From Patescibacteria group bacterium (GTDB lineage: Bacteria; Patescibacteriota; Patescibacteriia; UBA9934; GWF2-40-263), in NCBI GenBank assembly GCA_018814025.1, contig JAHJAM010000025.1:2530-66529 (forward strand): 64,000 bases of DNA, read 5' to 3'. Made by a program: the position numbers and the translations under genes. Under the pieces are notes generated by a model. It saw nothing but the letters and a program-made list of their open reading frames with translations. It was not told the DNA's origin and did no database searches. Shown here piece after piece: positions 1,273-53,690 of the stretch; the stretch's first letter is position 1; each line of letters opens with the position of its first letter.

Positions 1273-2979
1273 ATGTACGTCTGGGAACAAGCGCAGAAGC
1301 AAATCAGCCAAGAATTGAAGAAACATTTGGGCCAGAAGTTTGCCGTGTCAGCGTCTGATTTATTGACGCCGCCCAATCCGAAAATGGGGCATTTGGCTTT
1401 CGTGTGTTTCGCCGCGGCCAAGAGTTTGAAGCGGAACCCTCAAGAATTGGCCGCGGAGCTGGTTTTGAAAATTAAGACCGAAGGCTTGATTCAAGCCGTG
1501 GAGGCGCAAGGGCCGTATTTGAATTTCTTTTTGGATTTGCAGAATTTTGGGGCAGCGGTTTTGAGCGAAATATTGAAAGAGGGCAAGCAGTATGGACGCA
1601 ATGCCACCGGTCAAAAGAAAAAAGTGATGGTGGAGTATGCCAATCCCAACACGCACAAGGATGTGCACGTGGGGCATTTGCGGAATTTCGTGGTCGGGCA
1701 AGTAGCCGTGAATTTATTGAACGAAAACGGCTATCAAACCATTCCGGTTTCTTATATTAATGATTTAGGCGCGAATGTGGCCGCGTGTTTGTGGGGTATT
1801 AAGAATTTATCTAAAGGGAAAGAGCCGAAGAAGCAGGATCAAATGCAGTTTTTAAGCCGGATGTACGTGAAAGCCACGGCTCAAATGCAAGCGGATCCAA
1901 AAGTTAAAGAGGCAGTGTCAAAGATCCATTTGGAATTGGAAGAACAGAAAGGCGAATATCTTAATTTGTGGAAAAAGACGCATAAGTGGTCGGAAGATTA
2001 CTTAAAATCCGTGTTTGCTGATTTTAATTTGCCGATTCAGAAGTATTATTGGGAAAGCGATTTGATTGCGGACACAAAAAAGGCCGTTCAGGAGCTATTA
2101 AAGAAGAAGATTGCCAAAAAGAGCCAAGGGGCAATTATCGTGGATTTGGAAAAGCAGAATTTAGGCGTGGACTTGCTGGTTAAATCCGATGGCGCGCTGC
2201 TTTATAACGCTAAAGACATTGCGCTGGCCGTGAAAAAGAAAAAGGATTATCAGGCAGAGCAAAGTATTTACGTAATTGATGCGCGGCAGTCGTTGGCCAT
2301 GAAACAATTGTTCGCGGTTTTAGCCAAGATGAAATTCAAGCAAGACTTGCGGCACTTGGCTTATGATTTTGTGACTCTGCCGGAGGGAGCCATGTCTTCG
2401 CGCAAGGGCACGGTGATCCGCTATGAGGATTTTCGCGATGAAGTGACGGCTTTGGCCAGGAAGGAAACCAAGAAACGGCACAAGGGCTGGAGCGCCAAGA
2501 AATTAGATCAGACCGCGCGTTCGATCGCTTTGGCGGCCATCCGTTTTTCCATGCTCAAGCAGGATTTGAACAAAGTGATTGTTTTTGATCCCCAAGAAGC
2601 CTTGGCTTTTGACGGTTATTCCGGACCTTATCTTTTGTATACTTATGCGCGGATCAATAGCATTTTGAAAAAGGCGGGCCAAGCTTCTGGCCAACCTAAA
2701 GGCGATGATTTGCAAGAAACCGTGGAGCGGGAATTGGTGATGCTGCTGGCTCAATATCCGTCCGTGGTGCGGGAAGCCGGGGAAACATTGCAGTTATCGC
2801 AATTGGTGCATTACGCCTTCGACTTGTCGAAGAAGTTTGCGGAATATTATGAGCGGGTGCCGGTGGCGCAGGCCGAGCCGGAAGTGCGGGCCACGCGTTT
2901 GGCCACGGTCAAATCCGTGCAGCAAGTACTGGCCAACGTTTTGACCTTGCTGTCGATTGAACCGGTTAAAGAGATGTAA
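1273..2979 (+). CDS. argS: arginyl-tRNA synthetase
   Basis: 'NPNTHKDVHVGHLRN' HIGH motif typical of ArgRS. DALR anticodon-binding-like C-terminus. 568 aa. Confidence 0.92.
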   Translation: MYVWEQAQKQISQELKKHLGQKFAVSASDLLTPPNPKMGHLAFVCFAAAKSLKRNPQELAAELVLKIKTEGLIQAVEAQGPYLNFFLDLQNFGAAVLSEILKEGKQYGRNATGQKKKVMVEYANPNTHKDVHVGHLRNFVVGQVAVNLLNENGYQTIPVSYINDLGANVAACLWGIKNLSKGKEPKKQDQMQFLSRMYVKATAQMQADPKVKEAVSKIHLELEEQKGEYLNLWKKTHKWSEDYLKSVFADFNLPIQKYYWESDLIADTKKAVQELLKKKIAKKSQGAIIVDLEKQNLGVDLLVKSDGALLYNAKDIALAVKKKKDYQAEQSIYVIDARQSLAMKQLFAVLAKMKFKQDLRHLAYDFVTLPEGAMSSRKGTVIRYEDFRDEVTALARKETKKRHKGWSAKKLDQTARSIALAAIRFSMLKQDLNKVIVFDPQEALAFDGYSGPYLLYTYARINSILKKAGQASGQPKGDDLQETVERELVMLLAQYPSVVREAGETLQLSQLVHYAFDLSKKFAEYYERVPVAQAEPEVRATRLATVKSVQQVLANVLTLLSIEPVKEM

Positions 2980-2989
2980 AAAGAATTAA

Positions 2990-3020
2990 AAAGAGCCTCG
3001 CGGGTGCGGGGCTCTTTGAG
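2990..3020. terminator. GC-rich hairpin followed by a T-run, between convergent argS and the radical-SAM-like gene
   Basis: AGAGCCTCGCGGGTGCGGGGCTCT stem-loop followed by TTGAGTTTG. Confidence 0.5.
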
Positions 3021-3033
3021 TTTGCAGACCAGT

Positions 3034-4218
3034 TTAGGTCTTGGGGTTGAGGGGGAAATCGCGACTGTGGAGCAAGTCATGCTCCCAATCGGTTTGGCAG
3101 TCGCAGGTGATGGTGTAGCCGTTGCCGAACACGCCAGGGTTCAGGGTTTGGCGCCAGGCCGTGATTTGACTCAGGAGCCGGTGGTCGCAATGACCGCAGT
3201 TGCGAGGCCAATCGATCGGTCGAGGAATTTCATCATCCCAGCGGCCGAGCATGACCGGACCCAGATGAGCGGTTTGTTTCAAGACCTCGATGATGGTCCA
3301 GAGCCAGGGCGGCCGGAAGCCGTTTTCCCGGTTCCAAGCAACCATTTGCGGAGTGCCGGGCGAGATGTACAGAGCTTGGAGCAACACTTCATCAACACCC
3401 GCGCCGAAGACGTAGCTGATGGATTCGATGCATTGGTCCAAAGCGTAACCTTCGCCCATGACCAAGTGCGGTTTGAGCATCAGATAGACCGAGACTCGAC
3501 CGCCGAGGTCTTTGACTAGGCGGACGCTTTTTTCAAAAGACCGTTTGCCAATACCTTTGTGCATCAACTTGTTGCGGACGTGGTCGTTTTCGGTTTCGAA
3601 GCCGATAGCGATGTCGAGCGTTTTTCTGTTAGTAGCCAGATTATCGACCAAGGGACCAACCAGTTCTGGGGTGATGTAGGGCAAGCGTGATTCAATGCGC
3701 ACGGTTTGCGCTTGGCTTTGCTCGCCGACACGGCGGATCATCTCTAGCTGGGCATCCTGCGGAATTTCTCCGGGGTTCAGGAAAGAACCGGCCGTAAAAA
3801 TGTTGATGATGTCCACGGATTCGCGCATGGTGGCGAAACCGGCTTGGAAAATGGACAGGAATTCCTGCTCGCCGATCGGTAAGTCGCCGACATATTCGTC
3901 GACCGCCTGCTGGAAGGGGCAAAAGCTGCAACCATGGTGCTTGTTCAGGGCCCAAGCGCAGCCGCCGGGCAAATACATGAAGCCATGGGTGCCGACCCGC
4001 GAGAGTTGCGGAATATATCGAGTGTCAGTGAAGTAAACGATCTCGCCGGCCATTTGGTTGAGCAGCCGGCGAGCTTTCTCAGCTGCTAACAGATTGCGGC
4101 TGAGGCTGCCCAATAAGGACATCAAATGCGTGGGCAATTCCCGGTTCCAGAATTTTCGATGAAAAATTCGGGGTTTGTTCGGGACATTGGCCCGCACCCC
4201 CCGATTGTACGGTGCCAT
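3034..4218 (-). CDS. putative Fe-S / radical-SAM-superfamily-like enzyme with a non-canonical Cys cluster
   Basis: Long ORF. Most plausible start is ATG 4218-4216 (MAPYNRG...) with GGAGA RBS. Cys cluster 'CAWALNKHHGCSFC' (Cx9Cx2C), plus a C-terminal Cys-rich region 'NCGHCDH...CDC'. 'GFETEND' glycine-rich segment. Confidence 0.55.
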   Translation of the reverse strand: MAPYNRGVRANVPNKPRIFHRKFWNRELPTHLMSLLGSLSRNLLAAEKARRLLNQMAGEIVYFTDTRYIPQLSRVGTHGFMYLPGGCAWALNKHHGCSFCPFQQAVDEYVGDLPIGEQEFLSIFQAGFATMRESVDIINIFTAGSFLNPGEIPQDAQLEMIRRVGEQSQAQTVRIESRLPYITPELVGPLVDNLATNRKTLDIAIGFETENDHVRNKLMHKGIGKRSFEKSVRLVKDLGGRVSVYLMLKPHLVMGEGYALDQCIESISYVFGAGVDEVLLQALYISPGTPQMVAWNRENGFRPPWLWTIIEVLKQTAHLGPVMLGRWDDEIPRPIDWPRNCGHCDHRLLSQITAWRQTLNPGVFGNGYTITCDCQTDWEHDLLHSRDFPLNPKT

Positions 4219-17820: not shown

Positions 17821-18949
17821 ATGAAAGAGTTAATTCGCCAAATTCAAGACCTCCAGGAGAAAGCCGGCCGAACCTGGGGGTTGCTTTGACCTGGATACGG
17901 CCAAAGTGCAGCTGAAAAGTTTGGAAGAGCAAATGGGCAATCCGGATTTTTGGCGCGATCAGGAAAAAGCCAAAGAAGTGGGCAAGCAAGCCGCGGATTT
18001 GAAAAGCGAATTAGCGGTTTGGGAAAGCTTTAATCAGGAGGCGGACGACCTGCTGGAGATGGCTCAGCTGGCGGATCAGGAAGGCGATGAGTCATTGAGC
18101 GGGGAAATCGGCTCGAAGCTCGAGAAGCTGGAAGCGGCTTTTTCAAAAATGGAATTTGCGATTTTGTTGGCCGGACCCTACGACAAGGCCAACGCGATCG
18201 TGGCCATTCATGCCGGGTCGGGCGGCACCGAAGCGCAAGATTGGTCCGAGATGTTGTTGCGCATGTTCGTGCGCTTTGCGGAACAGAAAGGCTTTGAGGT
18301 GCAAATCGTGGATGAAGCGCGGGGCGAAGAAGCCGGCTTTAAACGAGTAATGTTTCGGGTGATCGGCCGATACGCTTACGGGTATTTAAAATCTGAACAC
18401 GGGGTGCATCGATTGGTCAGGATTTCACCTTTTGACGCGGAGAAAATGCGCCACACCAGTTTTGCGCTAGTGGAAGTTTTGCCGGAGTTTGAAAATTTGG
18501 AAGAGCTGGAAATCAATCCGGATGATTTGCGCATTGATACCTTTATGGCCGGGGGCAAAGGCGGACAAAGCGTGAACACGACTTATTCGGCGGTGCGAAT
18601 CGTGCACTTGCCGACCAAGATTACGGTCAGCTGCCAAAACGAGCGCTCGCAAAAGCAAAACAAGGAAACGGCTTTGAAAATTTTAAAAGCCAAACTGCAT
18701 CAATTGCAGCTGGCTGAGGAAGCGGCCAAGAAAAAGGAATTGCGCGGCGATTATCAGAGCGCGGAATGGGGCAATCAAATCCGTTCCTACGTGCTCCAGC
18801 CGTATAAAATGGTTAAAGACCACCGGACCGAATATGAAACTTCGGACGCGGCCGGGGTTTTGGCCGGCGACTTGGAGTCGTTTATGGAAGCCTATTTGCG
18901 CTGGGAACTGGCTCAGTCTGATCGTTTTGCCCAAGCTAATCAAGAATAA
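17821..18949 (+). CDS. prfB: peptide chain release factor 2, with programmed +1 ribosomal frameshift at CTT-TGA-C (17884-17890)
   Basis: Frame-0 ORF MKELIRQIQDLQEKAGRTWGLL* ends at TGA 17887-17889, preceded by the SD-like GGGGG. The +1 frame continues DLDTAKVQLKSLEEQMG... with SPF motif 'RISPFDA' and GGQ 'GGKGGQSVNT'. Confidence 0.93.
17869..17890 (+). promoter_or_regulatory. RF2 autoregulatory frameshift site (internal SD + CTT UGA C)
   Basis: cgaaccTGGGGGttgCTTTGAC, analogous to E. coli AGGGGGuauCUUUGAC. Confidence 0.85.
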
Positions 18950-18950
18950 T

Positions 18951-19883
18951 ATGACCAAGATTAAAAAAGCGATCGTCACCGGCGGCGCCGGATTTATCGG
19001 CTCGCACATCGTGGACGCGCTCATCAAGCGGCGAATTAAAGTGGCGGTGGTGGATGATTTATCAACCGGCCAGAAAAAGAATTTGAATCCGAACGCCAAG
19101 TTTTTCCAAGTCTCGATTGCCAGTCCGCAATTTCCACAAATCATCAAAAAATTAAAGCCGGATGTGATTTTTCATTGCGCGGCGCAGATCAACGTGCGCG
19201 AGTCAGTGAACGATCCTTTGAAGGACGCACGGCAAAATATTTTGGGAACCTTGGCTTTGGCTCAAGCGGCCGCGGACGCGAATGTCAAAAAGATTATTTT
19301 TTCCTCCTCGGGCGGGGCCATGTTTTCGGATGCTATCAAGCCGCCGTATTCGGAGAAGCAGGAGGCGCAGCCGGTTTCGCCTTACGGCATTGCCAAGCGG
19401 GCCGGAGAAATGTATTTGGATTTTTTTCATCAAACCCACGGTTTGCCGTATGTGGCTTTGCGCTACGCCAACGTCTATGGTCCGCGGCAGAACGATAAAG
19501 GCGAGGCCGGGGTCATTGCGATTTTTGCCGGCCGGATGCTGAAGGGGCAGCCGGTGAAAATTAACGGCACCGGCCGGCAGACTCGGGATTTCGTTTATGT
19601 GGATGATGTGGTCAAGGCGAATATGTTGGCAATGCGCAAAAACGCGACCGGGATTTTTCACGTGGGCACGGGCCGGCAAACGGAGATTAAAACGATTTTT
19701 AAAAAGATCAATGCTTTGACCGGCGGTTTGATGCCGCAACGCCATAACGCGGCTCAGCCCGGGGAAGTGATGCGCAGCGCGCTGGATTGCCGGAAAGCCA
19801 AACAGAGTTTAGCTTGGCAGCCGAGCGTGAAAATGGACGAAGGGTTGAAGAAGACGGTTGAATGGTTCAGGAAACAAAAGTAA
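18951..19883 (+). CDS. NAD-dependent epimerase/dehydratase (UDP-sugar 4-epimerase, GalE-like)
   Basis: Rossmann 'VTGGAGFIGSH'. Catalytic YxxxK 'SPYGIAKRAGE'. Start at ATG 18951, MTKIKKAIVTGG. The track's 18834 start overlaps prfB. Confidence 0.85.
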   Translation: MTKIKKAIVTGGAGFIGSHIVDALIKRRIKVAVVDDLSTGQKKNLNPNAKFFQVSIASPQFPQIIKKLKPDVIFHCAAQINVRESVNDPLKDARQNILGTLALAQAAADANVKKIIFSSSGGAMFSDAIKPPYSEKQEAQPVSPYGIAKRAGEMYLDFFHQTHGLPYVALRYANVYGPRQNDKGEAGVIAIFAGRMLKGQPVKINGTGRQTRDFVYVDDVVKANMLAMRKNATGIFHVGTGRQTEIKTIFKKINALTGGLMPQRHNAAQPGEVMRSALDCRKAKQSLAWQPSVKMDEGLKKTVEWFRKQK

Positions 19884-21266: not shown

Positions 21267-21287
21267 TACCACAACCCGGTTGTGGTA
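21267..21287. repeat. REP-like palindromic repeat family A, copy 1 (TACCACAAC-ccg-GTTGTGGTA)
   Basis: 21-nt element with 9-bp inverted arms. Identical copy at 21321-21341. Reverse-orientation copy at 32501-32523. Half-copy at 32910-32924. Confidence 0.85.
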
Positions 21288-21320: not shown

Positions 21321-21341
21321 TACCACAACCCGGTTGTGGTA
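21321..21341. repeat. REP-like palindromic repeat family A, copy 2
   Basis: ATACCACAACCCGGTTGTGGTAT, 54 nt after copy 1 in the same orientation. Confidence 0.85.
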
Positions 21342-21456: not shown

Positions 21457-22152
21457 ATGGAAGAAATTCGGTTGCAAAAGCGCCCCCGTTCAGCTCTTTC
21501 TGTTGAGCAGAAGGTGGCTTTTGTATTATTGCTGATTTTAGGCATGGGCGGATTGATTTTAGGCATGCTTTCTTTCGGCGCGAACATTCGCCGGCCTTTT
21601 GATATTCAGCTGGCCAATTACACGGGCGAGCCGGTTTACGGAACCGACGAAATGGAACGCCGCGAACTGGCGGCTTTGAAGAATAAAGATTCGGATCAAG
21701 ACGGACTTTCGGATTACGATGAATTGTACGTGTTTAAAACCAGCCCGTACTTGTCTGATTCGGATTCGGACGGGATTGACGATCGCACGGAAATTTTTGC
21801 AGGCGAGGATCCCAACTGTCCGAGCGGCAAAGAATGCGGAGCGTTTTTCGCGGGCGAGGAAACCAGTCAAGGGGAGACGGCCACCAGCTTGCTGCCGCCG
21901 CTCACCACCACGCCGGCGGCCGGCAGTTTCGGCAACGTGACCCTCGAGTCGCCGCAAGATATTTTGGAGTATTTTCAAAGTTTGAGCACGGATGAAATTC
22001 GCGACATGCTCAAGCAGCAGGGGGTGCCGGCGGAAACTTTGGATGAATTGGATGATGCCAGTTTGCGCGAATTGATTGAATCGTCTTTGACTAAAGCCAT
22101 GGCGGAAAATCAATTCGATCAGTTTTTAACCGAAGAACCGGCGCAGTATTAG
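21457..22152 (+). CDS. membrane-anchored calcium-binding repeat protein (DxDxDG motifs, thrombospondin type-3/dockerin-like)
   Basis: N-terminal TM 'VAFVLLLILGMGGLILGML'. 'DSDQDGLSDYDE', 'DSDSDGIDDRTE' Ca-binding-like motifs. Stop is 15 nt before the giant gene. Confidence 0.65.
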   Translation: MEEIRLQKRPRSALSVEQKVAFVLLLILGMGGLILGMLSFGANIRRPFDIQLANYTGEPVYGTDEMERRELAALKNKDSDQDGLSDYDELYVFKTSPYLSDSDSDGIDDRTEIFAGEDPNCPSGKECGAFFAGEETSQGETATSLLPPLTTTPAAGSFGNVTLESPQDILEYFQSLSTDEIRDMLKQQGVPAETLDELDDASLRELIESSLTKAMAENQFDQFLTEEPAQY

Positions 22153-22166
22153 CGCCAGCCAGATTT

Positions 22167-25100
22167 ATGAAATTGTTCCAAAGCAAAACCAGGAAGCTGT
22201 TCGCCGGGTTTTTTGCGTTTGGCCTCACCTTGTCGATTGTCTCGGCGGGCATTTTCAGTTTGGTTCAGCCGGCCTGGGCGCAAGATGTCCTGAGCACCGG
22301 GCAAGCGGCTTTGGAAGCCACCAGCAGCCAAACGCCGACCGCGGGGACATCCGTCAGCGCGGGAAATCCGGCCGAGGGTCCGGCCAAAGCCTTGGGGACC
22401 GTGAATCAAAACGTGATTAAGCCATCGATTCAAATGGTTTTGGTCTCGGTTTTGTTAAATTCTTTCCAATTCCTGCTCGACCGGTTGGCCTATGAAGCGG
22501 CCGTGGCCATCGCGTCATTAGGCGCCGGGGAAACGCCGTTAATCGTTCAAAAAGAAGGCCAGGATTTGTGGGCGGATATCGGCATGGACGTGGCCGGGGA
22601 GTTTGTGGGCGGCTTGAGCGACATGAGCACGGATTTCGTGGGGTTTAATCTTTGCGCGCCGCCCAATCCTTTAGTGCGTATGAGCATTCAATTGGGCATC
22701 AAGCAAGCTTATCAGCCGCCGGAGCCGAAATGCGATATTTTGAAAGTCGGCCAAAACTGGGAAGGGTTTATTAACTCAGCCATTCAGTTATCAGACAATC
22801 CGGGCGACGCGATCATTGAAGAATTTGCCAAATCCTTGAAGCCGGGCCGGAATGAGCTGAGCGCTTCGGTGGAGATTATGCTGGAGGCCGAACACCGAAT
22901 TGATTTGGCTAAAGCCACCGGGTTTCAGCAAGCTTTAGCCGGCGACGGTTTTAAGTCAGTGACTGATTTCGTGACCGGTCAAGTGACCACGCCTTCCAGC
23001 GTGTTGCAGAAGCAATTTGAAAAAACCACCATCGAGGATCGCGATAAGGCCGCGGCCTTTCACATGCAGACCCTGATCACCAATCCGGATTATCTTTGGG
23101 CCATGCTGTTTAACACCATGAGCATTTTTACCAACACTTTGCTGTCGGAATCGCTCAATCGGATTTATACCGGCATGTTCGAAGCTTCGCCGGAGATCGA
23201 TCCTTTCAACGTTGAATATATTTCTAACAATAACCGCCAATCAGCCATTGACCGTTTTTCCAGCTACTCCTCAACTCAACCAACTTCAATTACCAATTAC
23301 AACATCATCGCCGAGTTCGTGACTTGCCCTTCGGGCGGAGTGGCGATTCCCAACATTAATAACTGCGTGATGGACGCGAATTTCGCGACCGCGGTTTCGC
23401 GCGCGGCTTCAAAGAATCCCATGACCGTTCAAGAGGCGATTGACGAAGGGCTTTTGCATGGCGATTGGCCGCTGGTCAGTCCGGATGATCGGACCAAAAA
23501 TGAAAATTCGCTGTGTTATACCTTCGGCTATTGTTATGGCAATTTAGTGAAATTGCGCAAAGCCCGGATTATCCCGGTGGGGTGGGAATTGGCGGCCAAG
23601 CGCAGCCAGCAGGGCGCGCCCGCGACTTTGCAGGAAGTGGTTGACGGTTTTGACCACTGCAACAGCCAAGGCACGATCGATAGCAGTTCAAATCGTTTTT
23701 GCCATTTGATTGATCCGAACTGGGTTTTGAAATATCCGGAAACTCAATGCCGGGCTTTTGTCAGCGGCGAACAGATTATCAGCGGCTACAGTTCGGGCCG
23801 GGCCAATACCTGCGTGGATATGCCCAGCTGCATTTCCGAAAATAATGACGGCAGCTGCGATGGCGGCTTCGGCTACTGCGTGCGCGAGAAGAATATTTGG
23901 CGTTTCCGCGGCGATGAATGTCCGGTGCAATACGCCAGCTGTTTGAAGTTTACCAACGCGGATACCAAATCGCAAAAGAGTTTATTGGTGAACACGGTTG
24001 ATTTTGGCGTGTGCGGCCAAGGCAACGCGGGCTGTTTGTGGTATCGCACGAATAAATATATCGATGACAAGGGCAATACGGACCCTTCGGACGATACTTA
24101 CGAATTTTTGCCGGCCGGGGTCAGCTACATGACGGTCGCGCGCGACGCCGCGGTTGAATACGCGGGCTCAACCCGAACCTTTGGCTATTACGCGCACGAG
24201 GATCGGATTTATTTTGACCGGGACGCGGAAGAATGTGCGTCTCAAGACGCTGGTTGTACCAAGCTATATAAAATTGCTGATAATTTAGTTTTGAATGCGG
24301 TTGCAAATGGAAGTTTTGAACAAGATGAGAATAATGACGGGGTGCCGGATGGCTGGATTGGCTTGGAAGCCACGGATCGCGAGAGTGATACTGATGAAGT
24401 TCAGACCGGCGAATATGCCTTGCATATTCATAATGAACCAAACGTGTTTAGCCAGTCCGGCATTCAATTGGCACCGAATACTTTTTATACTTTCAGCCTT
24501 TATGCCAAGCAGGGGAGTGCGGGGGCAACAGCGGCGAATGCTAAGATCAGGATTTATGACGCGTTTGGCGGCTTGATTGATCTGACCGGCTTGTCCACGA
24601 CTTGTACGGTGCAAAGCAATTACTTCCGTTTAGAGTTGCTAAACTTGAACAATGATTATTCTCGTTATGAATGTTCTTTTACTACGCCGGGCACGACCGC
24701 GGCCGCGTCATTAGAAATTGATCCGTTTAACCGAGCCCGTTTCGACGCTATTCAAATCGAGAAAGGCGCGGTGGCGTCCAATTTTGCGGATGGCTATAAT
24801 CGCGAGGGCGCGACCGCTTATCTGAAATTGGCGCCGGACTATTTGGGATGCGAAGGCAAAGCCACGGATCCCCAAGCCTGCGAGCAATATACCCAAGTTT
24901 GTACCGAACAAGAGGTGGGTTGTAATTTGTACACGCCCAAGGGCGGCGGACCGGCGATTCCGGCCATCATCAGCGCGGTGGATGCGTGTCCGGCCGAATG
25001 CGTGGGCTACGCGGCTTTTAAGCAAGAAGCCACCAAATATGAGCTGGCCTTTTTCCCGGAATATTTTATCGCGGACACGGCCGCCAGCTGTACGGCCGAG

Positions 25101-28100
25101 CAAGTGGGCTGCGACAGCTTCACGAATTTGGATGCTTTGGACCAAGGCGGAGAGGGAATTGAATATTATTCCGATTTGCGGGCTTGTTTGACGCCGGCGG
25201 ACGCGGGCGACAATACGGGCGCGGACCGGGCCGCTAATTATTTCACTTGGGAAGGCACGGATCAGGCCGGCTATCAGCTGCGTTCCTGGTGGCTTTTGCA
25301 ATCAAACCTGAGCGATGCGCCATGTTCGAATTGGACCATGAGCGGCGCCTCCTCCTTAATATGTAACGACAGCGGGTCAGGGCTGGCGGCTTGCGACAGC
25401 CATGACGATTTGGTGAACAATCCGGATTGCCGCGAGTTTTTCGATGAAAACGGAGTCCGCCATTATCGCGAATATTCCAAGACCGTTACCATTAGCGAGG
25501 ATTGCCACCCATACCGCAAGACCATTGCCTTGCGCGACGACTGTTTGGCTTCCGACGGCTATTACACCCCGGCCGGCGAGTGCCGGTACTTTGGCGTGCC
25601 TGTGGAAAGCCAGAGCTGTTCGGCTTCGGCGGTCGGCTGTCGATCATATACGGGCGGGGCCGCGCGCAATCAAAGCGTGGTTTTCGATGATAATCTTGAG
25701 AGCGGCACCGTGGCCAATTACATGACGGAAAACGGCATCAACATTGCTTTTAGCAATGAGTCGCTGGCGCCGGACGGACATTCTTTGCGCGTTTATAATG
25801 CCAGCGGCACGGAATTTATCGCCACTACTCAGGCGATTATGACCAGCGAATGCGCGACCGCGGGCGGCTGTGCCAATCAAAATAGCGAGATGAACGGCGA
25901 GTGCGTGATTGCACAAGGAGAAATTGATTGCGGTCCGCTGCGCGACAAAATCGCGGCCGGCAAGACATTTAATTTGGAATTTTTAGCCAAAGGCAATGGC
26001 GCCATCAAGGCCGCTTTAATCGAACACGGCGGCGCGGATGACCTGCATTATTTCGGCGAAGCGCAACTGACCGGCGCTTGGCGGCTTTACACGCTTGGTC
26101 CATTGGATACCAGCGATTTGGATTACATTGATCGGACCACGGTTTTAGGTTTTCAAACCAGCGGAGCCACGGAATTTTTCTTGGATAATATCCGCCTGAC
26201 GCAAGCTGAAGATAACATTACTTTGATTAAAGATTCTTGGGTGACGCCCGCGGCTTGCGATCAAACGCCCAACGGCCTGAGTTCGCCGCAGTATTACCTG
26301 GGCTGCCAGGAATATTCGGATGTCACCAACCGTCCCAATTATCTTTATCAGTTCAGCCGCTTGTGCGGGGAAGATAAGGTCGGCTGCGAGGCTTATTATC
26401 AAACTTACAATTCGCAATCGCCTTACGGCCAAGTCAATAATGCGCGCTGTTTGAATGGCGCGGCGCCGAATGGCTCGCCGGTCGGCGCTTTGACCGCCTG
26501 CCAGTTTAACGGCCGGACCGTGTGTTCGATTGCGCCCGGAACCAATTTCTGTTTGTTCAATTTAGATCAAGCCATTAGCCGGCCTTTGCCCGCCAAGATC
26601 GTTTTGGGTCCGGAAGCCAAACTGGTTTCCGGGGATCGGCCGGTCTATTTGATTGATGACGGTTCAACTTCGTGTTCGGCGGCCAATGTTGGCTGTACGG
26701 AAATCGGCCAGCCCACGTTTAATCGCGACAAAACTCAAGTCACGGGTTTTGAATCCGCCTATTTCATGAATAATCCGGATGAGTATGAAAATACTCTTTG
26801 CGCCCACAAGGCTTTATTCTGTGCTGAGTGGTCATCGACCAAAGACGGCAATTTCTACTTCAAAGATCCGCTGGATCAAACTTGTGAATACAAGACCGGC
26901 ATCACCATCGATCGGCGCGAGTTTTTTGGCTGGTTCCGTAAAGGCAGCAATGAGCCGTGCGATTGGAATGATTTGAACCAGGACGGCGCCTACCATCCGG
27001 CGGATGATTCAGCTTTAATCAAGGAAGGCGGCAAATTTGAAGTTTGGCGCAATGGCGACAGCCAGTATTCGGGCTGGGTCGCGCAATGCGATCAGAATAT
27101 GGATTTGTGCACGGAATTTTTAGACCCGACCGATTCGCAAGAAGGGCGAAACCCGCTGGGCACGTCCTATTATTTCAAAAACAACGACGCTTTAAGCGAA
27201 AGCTCTCTGGCCGCGACTCAGCGCTGCGACGGCTTAGTCAGCCAGAAGCAGGGTTGCGTGCTGTTCCACAATTCCAGCATTTCCGACATGTATTATTCGG
27301 CCGAGCCCAGCTACATTGCTTCCGAACGCGCGGATATCTTGTTCGGGGACGCACAATTTGCCAAGGTTGATCCGATTGATTGCACCAATTACGATCCGAA
27401 CGAAAATCGGCTGGGGAAAAACCTATGCGAGCTGCGCTGCGCTTACCGCACGGGCGGCTTGGCTAATCCGCTCAAGACCTTGGCGACCACGGCTTCAACC
27501 GCTGATGCGAACCTGCTGTATTCAGGCGCTTGCGTGGATAATTCCGATTGCCCAAGCCAAGTGGCGGCCAACGGCTTGACTTACGCGGGCAACTGCGTGA
27601 GCGTGGAGCCGGCGGCACGCTTTACCAATAACACTAATGCCATTGTGAAAGTGGTGCGCGATCGCGCTTGCGCCCAGTGGCTGACGTGCGAATCAAAGAG
27701 CGTGACTTTTGATGACCAGCAGCAGAAGTGGGTGGAGGTGTGCGAGAATTTGGAGCTGTGCTCGCGCTATACCCGGGAAGGGGACACCACCGAGTGCACG
27801 GCCGCGGATCAGCCTGAACCGTATGTGCTGGATGCGCTGTACTATGCGGCCCGCGACGTAACTTGGACCGGGGTGGAATATTCCGGCTACTCGATTCCGG
27901 ATCAGCTGCCCGTGGATCTTTATGACCAGGTGGATTTGAATCCCAGCAAGTGGTGCGTCAGTACCGCTTCGGGGCGGCCTTACCGCGATGAGCAAACTGA
28001 TTTAGGCGTGCCTTGCACCAGTGATGACGGTTGCGATTATCTGGCCGCGGCCGGCGACTATTATTGCAGTCCGGCCAACGAACAGTATTATGTTTTGGCC

Positions 28101-31100
28101 AATGTGGCCGGGCCGTGCACGGAAGATTACAACACGGCTTGTACCGTGGGCTTTTGTGAGGATCATCCGAATATTGCCTGCGGCAATTCCAGCCATTGTC
28201 CCGATAATGGCGAGATCTGCGTGGTGGGCTATTGCCAGGACGTATATTTGGCGATTGGCTGTGATACGAACACGCAGTGCAACGGCGTTTCCGGCGGCCG
28301 AAACATCTGCGATCCGGTGGCGCGCAAGTGCGTGAATCAATTGACAACCGGCGAAAACGCCACGGCTTGCCGCAGTGCCGGCGACTGTACGGGCATCAAT
28401 CCGACCTGCACGCCCAGCGCCTTATCTCGAGTCGGCACCTGTTTTAATCAGCAGTGCTTGCTGGATATCAAAGGCCAGCCTTACAGTGCGAAACAGGACA
28501 AGGTGATTAACCCGGAGTGCCGCGGCTATCCGGAAATCGATTCGCCGTTTTCCGGTATCCCGGGCACGGTGGTGACCAAATATACGACCAAACCACCACC
28601 GACCGATTTCCTGCCGCAAGCTCAGGAGAAAAAAGTCGGCTACGGCCAAGTGAATATTTGCGCGCCGATTCAAACCGCGGCCGGGGTTTGGGCTTATACT
28701 TCTGATTGTTTGTGCAGTTATGAAAAGATGACTTACGGCGACGGGATCAAAACCTTTTATTATCCCAAAGGCACGGATCTGGATAATTTAGAAGGCGTGT
28801 GCGTGGGCGGACAATTCGACAGCTATACTTGCGCCAAGGATTCCGAATGCGGGTGCGCACGCGACAGCAGCTGCGAGGGGAATGAAATTAGCCTGGGCAT
28901 CTGCGCGCTGCCTAAGAAAAAAGAAACTTATCAAGGCTGGACCGGCCATTGCATTGAACGGGATTCGTCCACGCATATTTATGTGGAACAAGAAAAGAAC
29001 GCGTGTTTAACTTGGCTGCCCGTGGATCGGCTGACCGGGGCCACTGATTTGTACGGAAAAGATTTGGAAGCCGGACAATTCATCAATCAAGACGTTTTCT
29101 ATTGTTCCGAAACCGGCTATTACATGGATTTGTATCCGACCGGCACGGTTTTTGATGATTACAGTAATATTGTGGGCATTGATTATGCTTGCGCGTCGTC
29201 AATAGACGCTCCGGGAAATTTTCAGTGTGAGCAGGGCGAACGGGATAGTTGTGAAAAAAATGCTTACTGTCCGGCAGGCTGGGTGGCGCTGGTGGGTGTT
29301 TGCCATGGAAGTAGCAAGACGGAGACCAGTTTAGGGTATTGTACGGCGGATGTGTTGAATGAAAATTCAGACCTCCGAACCAAAATGCCGATTCAGGCCG
29401 CTGATCTGGCCTTGCCGCCGCTGGCACCGAATCTTAATGATTGTCCATATTTTTGCGTGCCAAAAAACAGTTATCATTCCGAGGGCAATGATGTCGGAAC
29501 GGCCTGCTTCGGTTCCGGACAGCTTTCAACAACTAATGTGGACGGCACTTCGGTTTTTGCCACCCCTTATTATCTGAACGATAACTTAGGAGTCGCGAAC
29601 GGCGAATCGTTTGCCAGCAGTACGGGCGCCTTCAAGAAATATTCCGACTGCGTGGTGCGCGGCGTGCCGGTGGGAACGAGCGAATACGAAACAGACTGGT
29701 ATTATAATTCCAGTTTTGAAGACGAAAATAGCGGATGGTATAAGGGGTATGGCTGGAAGCGCAATACTGATCTCAGTCCGGGCGAAATTGCGGTAGATTT
29801 CGGTCTCGGGCACGCCGCTTATGGTATTTTGCATCGGGCCGTGGGCGCCGGATATAAACATTGCGAAAGTTTAGGACAGGCTTGCACGACCGATGCTCAA
29901 TGTTTGGGTAATTATTCGACGGCGTTTGGTCCGGGCGGCATTCCGTCCAGTTTGACTGGCGCAACACTTCTGGCGTTTGAGGCGTTTTTGAATCAAGTTG
30001 CCCCATTTGTCGGCCAGTGCGGAACTTACGGCGGACCCGAGACGACCAGCGGATCGATTCGGCCTTATTACGGCTGTTATGAACTGACCCAAGTTTCTCA
30101 AGAAGTGACTACGGGTGCGGCCTTGGCGGAAAGCAACAAAGCCTGGACCAATCGTTTGTGGCAGAGCGCGGATCCGCTTTATCAAACCAAGACCAATATG
30201 CCCCAATGGACCGGTTCGGCTACCCAACCTTTGGAATATACGGTGCTGGATGCTCCCGCACCGGCCGGACAGGCTTTGTTTGCGGATTATTTCCAGCGCG
30301 ACGGGCTGACCAATAGATATCTCATGCGGGATTTTGCCGATGCTTTCCCCTTGCCGGTGCGGACTGATTTGGGCGGTTTTGCCATCGGTACAGTGGGTTT
30401 GGATATCAAAGCCGGCATTACGGACGCGGAAGCTTACAAATATCCGAGTTTGAATCAGTATAAAACCGGAGCCAGCAGTACGGCTTTGAAATCCGGGCAC
30501 ACGCCATACAGCTTAGCGCTCTCTTATGAAGACTTGGGAAATGGTTCTGAACTATCCGCGGTTTCAGGGGACATCGCTTTAGACCAGTATGGCCGTTTTG
30601 GAAACAGCAATAGTACGGAGGTAGGCGTCAGTCCGGATCCGGACGGGCAACAAAGCGTGCGCCGTTTGTTATCACAATTTTTTGCAAAAACATATGCGGT
30701 TTATCAATATGTTTGGAATGACAACCGCGGCACGTATGTGAAACAGCCGGACGCGGCCGGGGAGCAGTACGAATCAATGGATATTTCCAGCCAGGGCGAT
30801 GCTTTGGGCACAGAGTTTAATCAATATTCCGGCAATGGCGGACAGGTGCCGGTAGTGAAGTCAGTGGGTTCATGCCAAAACGGCTTATGCGCCGAAGGTA
30901 CGTCCGGCACGATGTCGGTCAACGGCATCGACGATGAAGATATTGTGATGAATGGCTATCAAACTTTCCAAGCCACGTTAAGCTTCTTTACCTATGCCCA
31001 GCCCAACCAATTGCCGATCCGCCAGATTATTGTGGATTGGGGAAATGGCACCGAGGAGGGGTCGATGGACACTTGGACGAATTGGCCTTTAACCAGCCAC

Positions 31101-31643
31101 AGCGGTTCTTCGGCCGCGGATAATTATTATAAAAATCATCGCGGCACTGACGGTTATGGCGGGGAAGTTTGGTGCGATGAAGGACGCATGGGGTTTGGCG
31201 GCAGCGGCGAAGCGTGCGAAAGCTCTTACCTGACTTTTGTGAATTCTTACCGATGTACCCCAACCATACTGACGGAATTGGATACAGCCGGGCGCGTGTG
31301 CCGGTTCCTAACTTTGCCAAACGGCGAGCGGAGATTGGAATATTCGCCGTGTATTGATCAGGGCTTGCAGGCTTGCGGCTTCCAGCCGCGCGTGTATGTG
31401 AAGGATAACTGGGGCTGGTGCACGGGGTATTGTACGAGTAATCCGGATGAGACACCGCTGGATGGTATTGATAATCCACCTGATTCAACTAATCAATGTT
31501 ATGGAAGTGAGTGTGATTTTGTGAGCTGTCCGAGTACGGGGCTGGGTGGTACTCCAACGTCAGATGTGTGCCCTGATGGTGAGTTTAGCGGTATAGATGA
31601 TCCATGGATATATTTTGACGGAGTGATTAAAATTCAGCCGTAG
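22167..31643 (+). CDS. giant secreted cysteine-rich surface protein (3158 aa) with two CBM4/9-like jelly-roll domains
   Basis: Uninterrupted 9.5-kb ORF. Signal peptide 'FAFGLTLSIVSAGIFSLVQPAWAQD'. More than 150 Cys. 'NAVANGSFEQDENNDGVPDGW...FDAIQIEKG' (nt ~24300-24780). 'FDDNLESGT...FFLDNIRLTQAE' (nt ~25690-26210). Confidence 0.9.
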   Translation: MKLFQSKTRKLFAGFFAFGLTLSIVSAGIFSLVQPAWAQDVLSTGQAALEATSSQTPTAGTSVSAGNPAEGPAKALGTVNQNVIKPSIQMVLVSVLLNSFQFLLDRLAYEAAVAIASLGAGETPLIVQKEGQDLWADIGMDVAGEFVGGLSDMSTDFVGFNLCAPPNPLVRMSIQLGIKQAYQPPEPKCDILKVGQNWEGFINSAIQLSDNPGDAIIEEFAKSLKPGRNELSASVEIMLEAEHRIDLAKATGFQQALAGDGFKSVTDFVTGQVTTPSSVLQKQFEKTTIEDRDKAAAFHMQTLITNPDYLWAMLFNTMSIFTNTLLSESLNRIYTGMFEASPEIDPFNVEYISNNNRQSAIDRFSSYSSTQPTSITNYNIIAEFVTCPSGGVAIPNINNCVMDANFATAVSRAASKNPMTVQEAIDEGLLHGDWPLVSPDDRTKNENSLCYTFGYCYGNLVKLRKARIIPVGWELAAKRSQQGAPATLQEVVDGFDHCNSQGTIDSSSNRFCHLIDPNWVLKYPETQCRAFVSGEQIISGYSSGRANTCVDMPSCISENNDGSCDGGFGYCVREKNIWRFRGDECPVQYASCLKFTNADTKSQKSLLVNTVDFGVCGQGNAGCLWYRTNKYIDDKGNTDPSDDTYEFLPAGVSYMTVARDAAVEYAGSTRTFGYYAHEDRIYFDRDAEECASQDAGCTKLYKIADNLVLNAVANGSFEQDENNDGVPDGWIGLEATDRESDTDEVQTGEYALHIHNEPNVFSQSGIQLAPNTFYTFSLYAKQGSAGATAANAKIRIYDAFGGLIDLTGLSTTCTVQSNYFRLELLNLNNDYSRYECSFTTPGTTAAASLEIDPFNRARFDAIQIEKGAVASNFADGYNREGATAYLKLAPDYLGCEGKATDPQACEQYTQVCTEQEVGCNLYTPKGGGPAIPAIISAVDACPAECVGYAAFKQEATKYELAFFPEYFIADTAASCTAEQVGCDSFTNLDALDQGGEGIEYYSDLRACLTPADAGDNTGADRAANYFTWEGTDQAGYQLRSWWLLQSNLSDAPCSNWTMSGASSLICNDSGSGLAACDSHDDLVNNPDCREFFDENGVRHYREYSKTVTISEDCHPYRKTIALRDDCLASDGYYTPAGECRYFGVPVESQSCSASAVGCRSYTGGAARNQSVVFDDNLESGTVANYMTENGINIAFSNESLAPDGHSLRVYNASGTEFIATTQAIMTSECATAGGCANQNSEMNGECVIAQGEIDCGPLRDKIAAGKTFNLEFLAKGNGAIKAALIEHGGADDLHYFGEAQLTGAWRLYTLGPLDTSDLDYIDRTTVLGFQTSGATEFFLDNIRLTQAEDNITLIKDSWVTPAACDQTPNGLSSPQYYLGCQEYSDVTNRPNYLYQFSRLCGEDKVGCEAYYQTYNSQSPYGQVNNARCLNGAAPNGSPVGALTACQFNGRTVCSIAPGTNFCLFNLDQAISRPLPAKIVLGPEAKLVSGDRPVYLIDDGSTSCSAANVGCTEIGQPTFNRDKTQVTGFESAYFMNNPDEYENTLCAHKALFCAEWSSTKDGNFYFKDPLDQTCEYKTGITIDRREFFGWFRKGSNEPCDWNDLNQDGAYHPADDSALIKEGGKFEVWRNGDSQYSGWVAQCDQNMDLCTEFLDPTDSQEGRNPLGTSYYFKNNDALSESSLAATQRCDGLVSQKQGCVLFHNSSISDMYYSAEPSYIASERADILFGDAQFAKVDPIDCTNYDPNENRLGKNLCELRCAYRTGGLANPLKTLATTASTADANLLYSGACVDNSDCPSQVAANGLTYAGNCVSVEPAARFTNNTNAIVKVVRDRACAQWLTCESKSVTFDDQQQKWVEVCENLELCSRYTREGDTTECTAADQPEPYVLDALYYAARDVTWTGVEYSGYSIPDQLPVDLYDQVDLNPSKWCVSTASGRPYRDEQTDLGVPCTSDDGCDYLAAAGDYYCSPANEQYYVLANVAGPCTEDYNTACTVGFCEDHPNIACGNSSHCPDNGEICVVGYCQDVYLAIGCDTNTQCNGVSGGRNICDPVARKCVNQLTTGENATACRSAGDCTGINPTCTPSALSRVGTCFNQQCLLDIKGQPYSAKQDKVINPECRGYPEIDSPFSGIPGTVVTKYTTKPPPTDFLPQAQEKKVGYGQVNICAPIQTAAGVWAYTSDCLCSYEKMTYGDGIKTFYYPKGTDLDNLEGVCVGGQFDSYTCAKDSECGCARDSSCEGNEISLGICALPKKKETYQGWTGHCIERDSSTHIYVEQEKNACLTWLPVDRLTGATDLYGKDLEAGQFINQDVFYCSETGYYMDLYPTGTVFDDYSNIVGIDYACASSIDAPGNFQCEQGERDSCEKNAYCPAGWVALVGVCHGSSKTETSLGYCTADVLNENSDLRTKMPIQAADLALPPLAPNLNDCPYFCVPKNSYHSEGNDVGTACFGSGQLSTTNVDGTSVFATPYYLNDNLGVANGESFASSTGAFKKYSDCVVRGVPVGTSEYETDWYYNSSFEDENSGWYKGYGWKRNTDLSPGEIAVDFGLGHAAYGILHRAVGAGYKHCESLGQACTTDAQCLGNYSTAFGPGGIPSSLTGATLLAFEAFLNQVAPFVGQCGTYGGPETTSGSIRPYYGCYELTQVSQEVTTGAALAESNKAWTNRLWQSADPLYQTKTNMPQWTGSATQPLEYTVLDAPAPAGQALFADYFQRDGLTNRYLMRDFADAFPLPVRTDLGGFAIGTVGLDIKAGITDAEAYKYPSLNQYKTGASSTALKSGHTPYSLALSYEDLGNGSELSAVSGDIALDQYGRFGNSNSTEVGVSPDPDGQQSVRRLLSQFFAKTYAVYQYVWNDNRGTYVKQPDAAGEQYESMDISSQGDALGTEFNQYSGNGGQVPVVKSVGSCQNGLCAEGTSGTMSVNGIDDEDIVMNGYQTFQATLSFFTYAQPNQLPIRQIIVDWGNGTEEGSMDTWTNWPLTSHSGSSAADNYYKNHRGTDGYGGEVWCDEGRMGFGGSGEACESSYLTFVNSYRCTPTILTELDTAGRVCRFLTLPNGERRLEYSPCIDQGLQACGFQPRVYVKDNWGWCTGYCTSNPDETPLDGIDNPPDSTNQCYGSECDFVSCPSTGLGGTPTSDVCPDGEFSGIDDPWIYFDGVIKIQP

Positions 31644-32500: not shown

Positions 32501-32523
32501 ATACCACAACCGGGTTGTGGTAT
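32501..32523. repeat. REP-like palindromic repeat family A, inverted-orientation copy (ATACCACAACCGGGTTGTGGTAT)
   Basis: Same arms as the 21267/21321 copies, but the asymmetric centre is CGG instead of CCG, i.e. opposite orientation. Confidence 0.85.
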
Positions 32524-32953: not shown

Positions 32954-33565
32954 TTATTTCATAAATTCTTGATAAGATTTTTGATCCATAAATTCTTCGT
33001 CTAGCCATTTAGGATCGACAATGTTATTTGCACCTGAAGAATTTAGAAAGTCAGCGTAGCTGGACCAAGGGTAGTCACGCAGAAATTGGTTTATTTGATC
33101 CCAATTTGTGTGTGGTTTGTTAATGAGTTTCAGTGGATTGCAGTGAATATATTTAGTTAAGTAGATAAGTTGTCTCTCGTTTGTAACTTGTTTGATCTTG
33201 TAGGGCCCCTCAAATAACCTACCCGTTCTCTTGTGTTTTAGGTTGAAATATTTTGTGTATCCGTTACCTAATCGTTGAAAAAAATGTGATATTCCATTGT
33301 CAGAATTTTGTTGGAGTAAGATGTGAAAGTGGTTTGGCATTAAACAGTAACACCGGATGTTGACCAGTTTTGTCCGACATGTGTTTTTATTGTAGCCGTT
33401 ATTTCTAGTTAATGTACATGTTGCTTTGCGATTGATTTGATTAAAGACTGCCATTCCTTTCAAGAATCTTTGATAGTCATTTTTATCGTCAAAGATAATT
33501 CGTTTATCAACTCCGCGATTATAGATGTGACAATATTGTCCATTGTAAAATTCCATTCTTTTCAT
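32954..33565 (-). mobile_element. REP-associated tyrosine transposase (RAYT; IS200-like HuH/Y1 transposase)
   Basis: HuH motif 'CLMPNHFHILLQ'. Catalytic Tyr region 'LIYLTKYIHCNPLK'. About 200 aa. Likely start MKRMEFYNGQ at 33565, but the ORF is open to 33664. Flanked by inverted family-B palindromes. Confidence 0.8.
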
Positions 33566-33671
33566 AAAGAATTCCAAAGCCGGATGATGGAAAATAAAAC
33601 TTCCACCAACTGGTGTTTGGTGGAAGTACACTGATAATATCGCACATTTTTTCATGATTGTCAACTACAAA

Positions 33672-43269: not shown

Positions 43270-43704
43270 ATGCCCCAACAGTTTACCGTGCCACAATTTA
43301 TCGACGCGGAGGATAAAATCCTCGGACCGATCACCATCCGCCAGTTTGTCATCTTATTAGTGGCGTTTATGACGGATGCGGTTTTGTACAAACTTCTGCC
43401 GTTTGTGCCTTTTCTTTTGGTGGCCATTCCCTTAATCGCCGTGGCCGGCATTATCGCTTTTGTGAAGATTAACGGCATGCCCTTTCATTATTTTATTTTG
43501 AATTTGCTGCAAACTCTGAAGCGGCCGCAACTGAGAGTGTGGGATAAGACGATTAACGATTCGGAGCTGCGGGATTTGATCAAAGTGGTCAAAGAACCCC
43601 CGCCGCCGCCGCCGGAACGCAAGGCGCCGGTCTCCCGGTCGCGCTTGAACGAATTAACCTTAGTCGTCAACACTGGCGGACTTTATAAACCCGAGGGTGA
43701 ATAA
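43270..43704 (+). CDS. small two-TM membrane protein, VirB3/PrgI/TcpE-like
   Basis: 144 aa. Two adjacent hydrophobic helices. Located immediately upstream of the VirB4-like ATPase, as in Gram-positive T4SS. Confidence 0.45.
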   Translation: MPQQFTVPQFIDAEDKILGPITIRQFVILLVAFMTDAVLYKLLPFVPFLLVAIPLIAVAGIIAFVKINGMPFHYFILNLLQTLKRPQLRVWDKTINDSELRDLIKVVKEPPPPPPERKAPVSRSRLNELTLVVNTGGLYKPEGE

Positions 43705-52355: not shown

Positions 52356-52360
52356 AAGGT

Positions 52361-53686: not shown

Positions 53687-53690
53687 GAAT

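Follow-up and report, generated by a model that had tools for sequence, protein, structure and literature searches.

Introduction

Large, cysteine-rich extracellular proteins have been described from Peribacteria, members of the candidate phyla radiation (CPR), and a role in attachment was proposed for them (Anantharaman et al., 2016, PeerJ; PMC4736985); a family of MdbA-like thiol-disulfide oxidoreductases enriched in the CPR is documented as well (bioRxiv 10.1101/335083). The general kind of protein considered here is therefore already known. A third point of reference is a 2025 survey of type IV secretion systems (T4SSs), according to which monoderm T4SSs rely on surface adhesins, while none were detected for the T4SSs of Patescibacteria (PMC12102498). 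Here, we analyze a stretch of 64,000 nucleotides from a Patescibacteria group bacterium (GenBank assembly GCA_018814025.1, contig JAHJAM010000025.1, positions 2,530 to 66,529 of the forward strand), below called the window, and in particular two adjacent genes, SMALL and GIANT (Table 1). These encode a calcium-loop membrane protein and a very large, Cys-rich, exported protein, respectively, which we tentatively read as the parts of a cell-surface contact structure.

The Peribacteria proteins and GIANT are alike in being large, Cys-rich, unannotated CPR proteins with signal peptides, and in both cases the genome encodes an enzyme that forms disulfides. By their descriptions, the two sets nevertheless differ: the Peribacteria proteins form a 14-gene cluster, with an average length of 1655 residues and 7% Cys, and vary between strains, whereas GIANT is a single gene of 3158 codons with 4.2% Cys, lineage-wide and collinear. 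Moreover, GIANT, unlike the Peribacteria set as described, has a constant partner in a small calcium-binding membrane protein.

Gene pair and integrity of the reading frame

SMALL and GIANT are co-directional and separated by a spacer of 14 nucleotides. We compared the proteins of the window with 83 related loci by tblastn. SMALL is found immediately upstream of GIANT, on the same strand, in all 70 eligible loci, and the two reading frames lie a median of 5 nucleotides apart, stop to start (between −10 and +40 in 64 of 76 loci), in line with the operon proposed for the two genes in the initial annotation. A promoter-like element precedes SMALL; as a consensus scan found no full sigma-70 site, the TGTTATAAT element remains only a candidate. 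The hairpin downstream of GIANT, judged by its sequence, is a candidate bidirectional terminator between convergent genes.

The 9.5-kb open reading frame (ORF), initially annotated as a single one, is intact. GIANT is collinear with many homologues of 3,000–3,400 residues across 100% of its length, and a partial NCBI protein of 2146 residues matches it at 100% identity; hence the check for frameshifts and chimerism gives no signal, and an assembly artefact is ruled out. Likewise, cargo of a mobile element or prophage is ruled out by the conserved chromosomal position and the uniform GC content.

Table 1. Coordinates of the gene pair, of regions within GIANT, and of neighbouring features (nucleotide positions count from the first letter of the window; residues are those of the encoded protein).
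Feature	Start	End	Strand	Description and basis
Extended −10 promoter-like element TGTTATAAT	21437	21445	+	candidate; 11 nucleotides 5' of the SMALL start codon; read from the sequence
SMALL	21457	22152	+	type-II membrane protein of 231 residues; ORF listing and translation
GIANT	22167	31643	+	exported protein of 3158 residues with 134 Cys; ORF listing and translation
Sec signal peptide of GIANT	22167	22280	+	residues 1–38; cleavage predicted between AWA and QD (inferred)
N-terminal Cys-poor region	22404	23306	+	residues 80–380; long helices in the AlphaFold2 model (confidence score 30–50); conserved hydrophobic helix at residues ~85–105
Most conserved module	23304	24266	+	residues 380–700; confidently modelled small alpha/beta domain at residues ~380–525; family-defining
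CBM-like jelly roll 1	24264	24806	+	residues 700–880; conserved internal Cys pair C813–C836; Pfam, profile, AlphaFold2/Foldseek
Cys-rich module after CBM1	24804	25661	+	residues 880–1165; residues ~970–1162 confidently modelled, beta-rich
CBM-like jelly roll 2	25659	26216	+	residues 1165–1350; sequence profile only
Conserved non-repetitive Cys-rich core	26214	29126	+	residues 1350–2320; Cys-dense beta-hairpin block at residues ~1980–2105
Fast-evolving, indel-rich region	29124	30806	+	residues 2320–2880; mean identity 15–17% over residues 2401–2800
Conserved C-terminal beta-rich domain	30804	31640	+	residues 2880–3158; motifs VDWGD and DNWGWCTG; model confidence score 75–92
Perfect 9-bp hairpin GACCAGTGC-TAG-GCACTGGTC	31668	31688	none	24 nucleotides past the GIANT stop; A-/T-rich runs at both sides
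Convergent Cys-containing lipoprotein ORF	31712	32356	−	lipobox LLAAPILAC; recurrent in position, poorly conserved in sequence
Monoderm-type T4SS/competence cluster	36121	47801	+	M23 lipoprotein, six-transmembrane VirB6-like protein, coiled-coil protein, PrgI-like protein (43270–43704), TraC-like protein, VirB4, one-transmembrane protein, ComF
DsbA/MdbA-like thiol-disulfide oxidoreductase	55042	55695	−	membrane-anchored; CSAC at residue 74; transmembrane helix at residues 6–24

Export, composition and motifs of GIANT

The mature form of GIANT has a mass of ~338 kDa and a pI of 4.4. Its Cys residues number 134 (4.2%), an even number, rather than the more than 150 claimed initially. The N-terminus comprises a basic n-region, a hydrophobic core at residues 11–35, which is the sole strongly hydrophobic stretch of the protein, and the AWA/QD junction; it therefore reads as a Sec signal peptide, as had been noted for this protein, and GIANT is therefore predicted to be exported. 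An A-x-A signal peptide of the same kind is present in 102 of the 114 full-length homologues.

A motif scan of GIANT finds no LPXTG (LPx[TSA]G), RTX (GGxGxD), HExxH, or CxxC motif, and no second transmembrane (TM) segment is seen beyond the signal-peptide region. The protein sequence directly supports the view that GIANT lacks its own means of anchoring, whether by a membrane segment, a sortase motif, or RTX. An RTX adhesin and an LPXTG adhesin are ruled out by the absence of GGxGxD and LPx[TSA]G, respectively. Tandem Repeats Finder reports no tandem repeats in the gene. An RGD-like triplet (R/K-G-D/E, with G582 invariant) occurs at residues 581–583 (nucleotides 23907–23915) within the motif WRFRGDxCP of the most conserved module; it is probably structural.

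Family extent and conservation

A word-indexed search returns more than 200 homologues of GIANT with 35–56% identity, nearly all of 2,900–3,500 residues. The named ones are labelled "hypothetical protein" and come from Candidatus Uhrbacteria or Patescibacteria, which agrees with the CPR affiliation given in the initial annotation. The literature searched contains no description of the family. With one genome scanned per GTDB species, 332 loci encode a relative, so that at least 332 species genomes keep the gene. We also ran an exhaustive HMMER search with a profile of residues 380–700 against 1.84 billion cluster representatives. Of the 1144 proteins that pass E ≤ 1e-3, 980 also pass E ≤ 1e-30, leaving almost no distant tail. 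In every match listed, the module lies at residues ~350–730 of proteins of 2,600–3,700 residues; shorter matches look like contig-end fragments. Taken from these sequence matches, the family is sharply bounded, with ~1,000 clusters at 50% identity, and spans the Uhrbacteria lineage.

In an alignment of 40 sequences, ~100 of the 134 Cys residues of GIANT are invariant or nearly so. Conservation is high at residues 80–2320, with a peak mean identity of 59% at residues 401–600; it collapses at residues 2320–2880 and recovers at residues 2880–3158. The closest homologue has 66–86% identity over residues 1–1000 and 28–42% over residues 2000–3158. The alignments thus show conservation declining from the N- toward the C-terminus, with the N-terminal third as the best-conserved portion and the fastest evolution just ahead of the C-terminal domain. 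Unlike variable accessory genes, GIANT behaves as a vertically inherited, single-copy core gene in conserved housekeeping synteny.

Carbohydrate-binding modules and other regions of GIANT

Two jelly-roll segments resembling carbohydrate-binding modules (CBMs) had been annotated by short motifs, which lie at residues 715 (GSFE), 862 (IQIEKG), 1173 (FDDNLESG), and 1337 (FFLDNIRLT), i.e., about one third along the length of GIANT. Both segments are recovered when family profiles are compared with solved structures, and segment 1 also by AlphaFold2 (AF2) modelling followed by a Foldseek search. For segment 1, Pfam CBM_4_9 (PF02018) matches the GIANT of the window at residues 710–851 with 23.6 bits, just under the gathering score of 25.9, and is matched in all 15 family members scanned, with the best E = 2.4e-10; PF02018 is also precomputed for most homologues. 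The family profile of this segment matches in the PDB the CBM16 structure 2zew (E = 5e-6) and the CBM4 structure 1gui (E = 5e-5). Its model, with a predicted local distance difference test score (pLDDT) of ~80–90, is a jelly roll similar to solved CBMs: CBM16 2zew is again the Foldseek match (E = 2.4e-7, target TM-score 0.71), together with CBM4-2, CBM22, and CBM61. This search, run with the model of residues 80–1170 that includes segment 1, also returns toxin and phage receptor-binding jelly rolls. For segment 2, Pfam gives no match, while the family profile matches CBM4 of laminarinase 16A (1gui, E = 3e-6), CBM22 (4xup, E = 0.004), and CBM4-2 (3jxs, E = 0.016). The assignment of both segments to CBM4/9/16/22-type modules (CBM1 and CBM2 below) is supported, for segment 1 by the predicted fold and for segment 2 at the level of the profile.

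CBM1 and CBM2 are related to each other at 84–93% probability in hhalign. An all-against-all hhalign comparison of alignment slices places this similarity in a two-unit duplication, in which CBM1 with the following Cys module (residues ~766–990) corresponds to CBM2 with the following Cys module (residues ~1261–1515) at 84–93%; the same comparison finds no further internal repeats in GIANT. The sequence similarity points to an ancient, single duplication of a CBM plus its Cys module.

The remaining regions are modelled with uneven confidence. The AF2 model of residues 80–1170 has a mean pLDDT of 60, with confident blocks at residues ~380–525, 700–880, and 970–1162, and the model of residues 1960–3158 has a pLDDT of 60 and a predicted TM-score of 0.50. 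The final alignments used for structure prediction had 38–40 rows, which probably limited the quality of the models. Residues 80–380 are a candidate docking or oligomerisation region.

The model of the C-terminal 1,200 residues (1960–3158) has no significant Foldseek match in the PDB or in the viral BFVD. Per-region family profiles compared with the PDB give nothing credible for residues 80–380, 380–700, 880–1165, 1960–2320, and 2880–3158, and for residues 380–700 no relative is found at E ≤ 10. Matches to TAZ zinc fingers (E ≥ 0.025) in the PDB profile searches are explained by the Cys spacing alone. A phmmer search with the whole protein gives zero matches in the PDB, and the profile of the whole family nothing credible there. 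In Pfam, CBM_4_9 is the sole recurrent match among 15 family members; in NCBIfam, GIANT has only a sub-threshold match to a spike or fibre protein of gene transfer agents (GTA) or phages, which overlaps CBM1 and is hence taken as its jelly roll. In total, ~89% of the length of GIANT has no match to any Pfam family or solved structure.

SMALL

SMALL has one N-terminal TM helix (residues ~20–43), followed by two loops of the pattern DxDxDGxxDxxE at residues 78–89 and 101–112, whose DxDxDG motifs start at residues 78 and 101, 23 residues apart. Next come a C-x5-C pair and, beyond a variable linker, an acidic helical domain in the C-terminal part, both of them conserved. The family (73 sequences) keeps this order, i.e., the TM helix, the segment DTDxDGLxDYDELYxYKTSPYxxDSDSDGxxDxxE, the C-x5-C pair, the variable linker, and the acidic helical C-terminal domain; 58 of the 73 members have two DxDxDG motifs. 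Pfam TSP3_bac (PF18884) matches the SMALL of the window with 15.3 bits (E = 0.018), below the cut-off of 25; among six other members, one match is above the cut-off (29.1 bits) and three are weak. Weak EF-hand and weak SAM-like matches recur in the family. The initial description of a membrane-anchored, TSP3-like protein with calcium-binding repeats holds for the TM helix and the two TSP3/EF-hand-like calcium loops, and the sequence directly supports a prediction of SMALL as crossing the membrane once and exposing its calcium-binding loops outside the cell.

Proposed function of the pair

We propose, at a probability of about 0.45, that SMALL and GIANT are a two-gene operon building a cell-surface contact structure. 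GIANT would be oxidised outside the cell by an enzyme of the DsbA/MdbA type, yielding a rigid protein with ~67 disulfides. It may dock non-covalently on SMALL via the conserved N-terminal helical region and so stay at the cell surface, the conserved N-terminal third of GIANT forming the presumed cell-proximal base. From there it would project as a rigid fibre, whose CBM modules might bind glycans of the envelope of the partner (host) cell, and whose fast-evolving region might confer partner specificity.

A surface structure is favoured by the conserved signal peptide, the absence of an own anchor, the strict pairing with SMALL, the calcium loops, the two CBMs, and the conservation gradient; an extracellular disulfide-bonded fold, by the 134 Cys residues, of which ~100 are invariant or nearly so, by a DsbA-like gene in the window, and by the documented MdbA-like family enriched in the CPR (bioRxiv 10.1101/335083). 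The retention of a 9.5-kb gene in so many species genomes is a large genomic investment, and also speaks for this proposal, for which the Peribacteria proteins, with their proposed role in attachment, provide a precedent from another CPR lineage (PMC4736985). Several points weigh against it. The interaction of SMALL with GIANT and the retention at the surface are purely inferred. Folds of the CBM_4_9 type also occur in non-adhesive contexts, such as receptor-binding domains of toxins, phage spikes, and enzymes. Both AF2 models are only partly confident. The literature searched yields no expression or proteomic data. Finally, the strong conservation, the non-repetitive sequence, the single copy, and the housekeeping synteny are also compatible with a structural component of the envelope.

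Genomic neighbourhood and the T4SS/competence cluster

Upstream of the pair, the order GroEL, RF1, epimerase, (TsaC), RsmA is kept in 74–100% of the eligible loci. RsmA is present in all 67 loci, RF1 in 54 of 55, and GroEL in 45 of 49, TsaC (48 of 65) being the least constant neighbour. In the window, the RF1 ORF (17906–18949) and the epimerase ORF (18834–19883) overlap by 116 nucleotides as listed; the Pfam match of the epimerase starts at residue ~44, hence its true start is probably further downstream.

Directly 3' of GIANT, in the gap between GIANT and the M23 gene, many genomes (e.g., loci L003, L039, L041, and L063) carry a convergent multi-Cys lipoprotein with a lipobox, of ~214–255 residues. 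The lipoprotein of the window is detected by tblastn in only two of 51 loci, and this sequence divergence suggests a fast-evolving surface lipoprotein.

Further downstream, the window contains a complete monoderm-type T4SS together with competence genes, whose one-TM protein is possibly VirB8-like, followed in the neighbourhood by RecG, RadA, two fusions of T4SS_pilin with hydrolases, and the DsbA-like gene. The fusions (within 51036–55695, minus strand) combine T4SS_pilin with VanY/M15 and with M23, the latter having 19 Cys residues and sharing its first 26 nucleotides with the end of the DsbA-like gene. In 30 of 35 loci, the M23–VirB6-like cluster is found on the strand of GIANT within 10 kb on its 3' side, at 1.2–1.9 kb in the nearest cases; in the other five GIANT loci, the T4SS is absent within 10 kb. 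One locus serves as a natural with/without comparison for the pair: in L084, from a Patescibacteria genome (GCA_028710985.1, contig JAQTTB010000001.1, 9025–17278), the GroEL–RF1–epimerase–RsmA backbone runs from RsmA straight into the VirB6-like gene and the T4SS, and at that position there is no SMALL, GIANT, or M23 gene of the window type, hence the place taken by SMALL–GIANT is the 5' junction of the cluster. In class ABY1, KsgA, comF, recG, and radA are reported near virB4 (PMC12102498), and the context seen in the window agrees with this neighbourhood.

A functional link between GIANT and the T4SS is put forward as a hypothesis. As a more specific version of the proposal above, the pair may serve the adjacent monoderm-type T4SS/competence machinery as its module for surface contact or adhesion, in the manner of PrgB/PrgC, encoded 5' of the channel genes of the enterococcal pCF10, bringing the envelope of a partner close for DNA or protein transfer. 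Spelled out for the T4SS/competence apparatus of Patescibacteria (class ABY1), it would be a surface adhesin module, with GIANT as a 338-kDa disulfide-stapled fibre, docked on SMALL and capturing the host envelope via its CBMs. If this is true, the fibre would let the T4SS–ComF–RecG–RadA machinery take up host DNA or other macromolecules, and ~90% of GIANT would consist of folds without known relatives. We consider this version unlikely, both as a general module and in the ABY1 form. It is favoured by the same-strand cluster of M23, VirB6-like, PrgI, TraC-like, VirB4, and ComF genes within 10 kb in most loci, by the position of the pair in the L084 comparison, and by the need of monoderm T4SSs for surface adhesins that the survey did not detect in Patescibacteria, with a gene context agreeing with that of the window (PMC12102498). 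On the other hand, the pair and the cluster are separate operons: the convergent lipoprotein gene always lies between them, often with housekeeping genes such as the SerRS gene. In L084 the cluster occurs with no pair at the junction, and in L086 the 10 kb upstream of it contain no giant gene. GIANT has neither homology to PrgB-type adhesins nor an LPXTG motif. The 86% adjacency is no higher than that of the clearly unrelated neighbours RsmA, RF1, and GroEL, and conserved synteny could explain it; as adjacency to the T4SS is no stronger than that to housekeeping genes in the tblastn comparison, synteny alone does not establish a functional link.

The DsbA-like gene, initially named as a possible source of the disulfides, stands up to inspection: its product matches Thioredoxin_4 (87 bits, E = 2e-24) and DSBA (51 bits, E = 1.6e-13), both above the cut-off, and has the CSAC motif and a TM anchor.

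A perfect palindrome, CCACAACCCGGTTGTGG, resembling repetitive extragenic palindromes (REP), occurs three times in the window (21269–21285, 21323–21339, and 32504–32520), while shuffled sequences predict none. Its copies bracket the block of SMALL, GIANT, and the lipoprotein gene, and the third adjoins a gene (32954–33664, minus strand) for a protein like the IS200/REP-associated tyrosine transposases (RAYT; Y1_Tnp, E = 1.7e-8). GC skew is positive throughout positions 1–51000, and the plus strand carries nearly every gene up to ~51 kb. This fits a leading-strand, possibly origin-proximal location, as suggested for T4SS loci (PMC12102498).

Alternative functions

Somewhat less probable still is that GIANT is a structural protein of the envelope (a surface layer, sheath, or stalk) serving its integrity or shape. 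GIANT is a core gene in a single copy, inherited vertically and syntenic with GroEL, RF1, and RsmA; this, the collinear, non-repetitive architecture with invariant Cys residues, the sharply bounded, lineage-wide family, and the obligatory membrane partner SMALL all agree with such a role. However, a distal region that evolves fast and two CBMs are better explained by ligand recognition than by the formation of a lattice, and S-layer proteins are not typically as large (338 kDa) or as rich in Cys. Neither SLH nor any other known S-layer domain is detected in GIANT by Pfam, and the sole S-layer structure among the structural matches, 8cka, is not significant (E = 0.31); an S-layer protein of a known type is thus ruled out.

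An enzyme degrading glycans or cell walls, secreted and targeted by the CBMs, with a novel catalytic part at residues 380–700, appears improbable. CBM4/9/16/22 modules are classically found on glycoside hydrolases, the top PDB matches come from xylanases, laminarinase, and endoglucanase, and the putative catalytic part is the most conserved one and holds invariant acidic residues. Yet no catalytic family is found by Pfam, NCBIfam, the PDB profile search, or Foldseek, there is no HExxH or other recognisable catalytic motif in GIANT, and another ~2,000 residues, conserved and Cys-rich, would be left without explanation.

GIANT as a polymorphic toxin or contact-dependent effector, in which a variable toxic tip would follow a conserved delivery part, is disfavoured as very improbable: the N-to-C conservation gradient and the hypervariable residues 2320–2880 recall one, but the extreme C-terminus (residues 2880–3158) is conserved, the next gene is convergent, so that no co-directional immunity-like gene follows, and Pfam finds no toxin, Rhs, or pretoxin domain.

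Significance

The genomes of Uhrbacteria are small, roughly 0.6–1 Mb. Every lineage examined keeps the 9.5-kb GIANT gene, ~1% of the genome, for one exported protein with an estimated ~67 disulfides. The retention of a gene of this size in small genomes points to a function central to the presumably episymbiotic lifestyle. With GIANT, a major uncultured group of the CPR gains a concrete candidate for its physical contact structure, and the protein is also a candidate for the adhesin missing from the Patescibacteria T4SS in the 2025 survey (PMC12102498). In addition, the family is a source of possibly new disulfide-rich folds, and the CBM modules, expressed alone, could be used as probes for the glycan, and hence the host, bound by these organisms.

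Comparison with known systems

Both segments of GIANT match CBM4/9/16/22 modules by profile, and segment 1 also by its predicted fold. Unlike the usual CBMs, they are not attached to a recognisable glycoside hydrolase, have extra disulfides, and each precede one of two homologous Cys-rich modules.

Giant repeat adhesins (SiiE, LapA/RTX, MpIBP, LPXTG adhesins with Ig repeats) resemble GIANT in size, export, the involvement of calcium (here in SMALL), ligand modules set in a long extender, and the presumed surface location. They differ in having Ig-like tandem repeats and an RTX/type I secretion signal or an LPXTG motif, none of which is present in GIANT; and their extender is a string of calcium-stiffened repeats, whereas that of GIANT is a unique, disulfide-rich sequence. 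GIANT is no typical repeat adhesin.

With PrgB/PrgC of pCF10, GIANT shares the position of the gene 5' of a monoderm-type T4SS channel set and a large, surface-exposed product (in GIANT, a predicted one). In contrast to them, GIANT has no sequence or domain homology, no LPXTG motif, and no shared transcription unit, and its association with the T4SS is not universal; searches of Pfam, NCBIfam, and the PDB give no homology of GIANT to the PrgB polymer-adhesin or Ag I/II.

SMALL resembles proteins with TSP3 repeats (PF18884; CglD and MtsD of Myxococcus) in its two loops and its weak matches to TSP3_bac, MtsD, and CglD. It differs in having only two repeats in a bitopic membrane protein of 231 residues, the SMALL of the window being below the threshold.

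What sets the GIANT family apart from the Peribacteria proteins and from classical giant adhesins is a single, lineage-wide, non-repetitive core gene with an obligatory calcium partner, a conserved place by the T4SS, and ~89% of its length outside known families.

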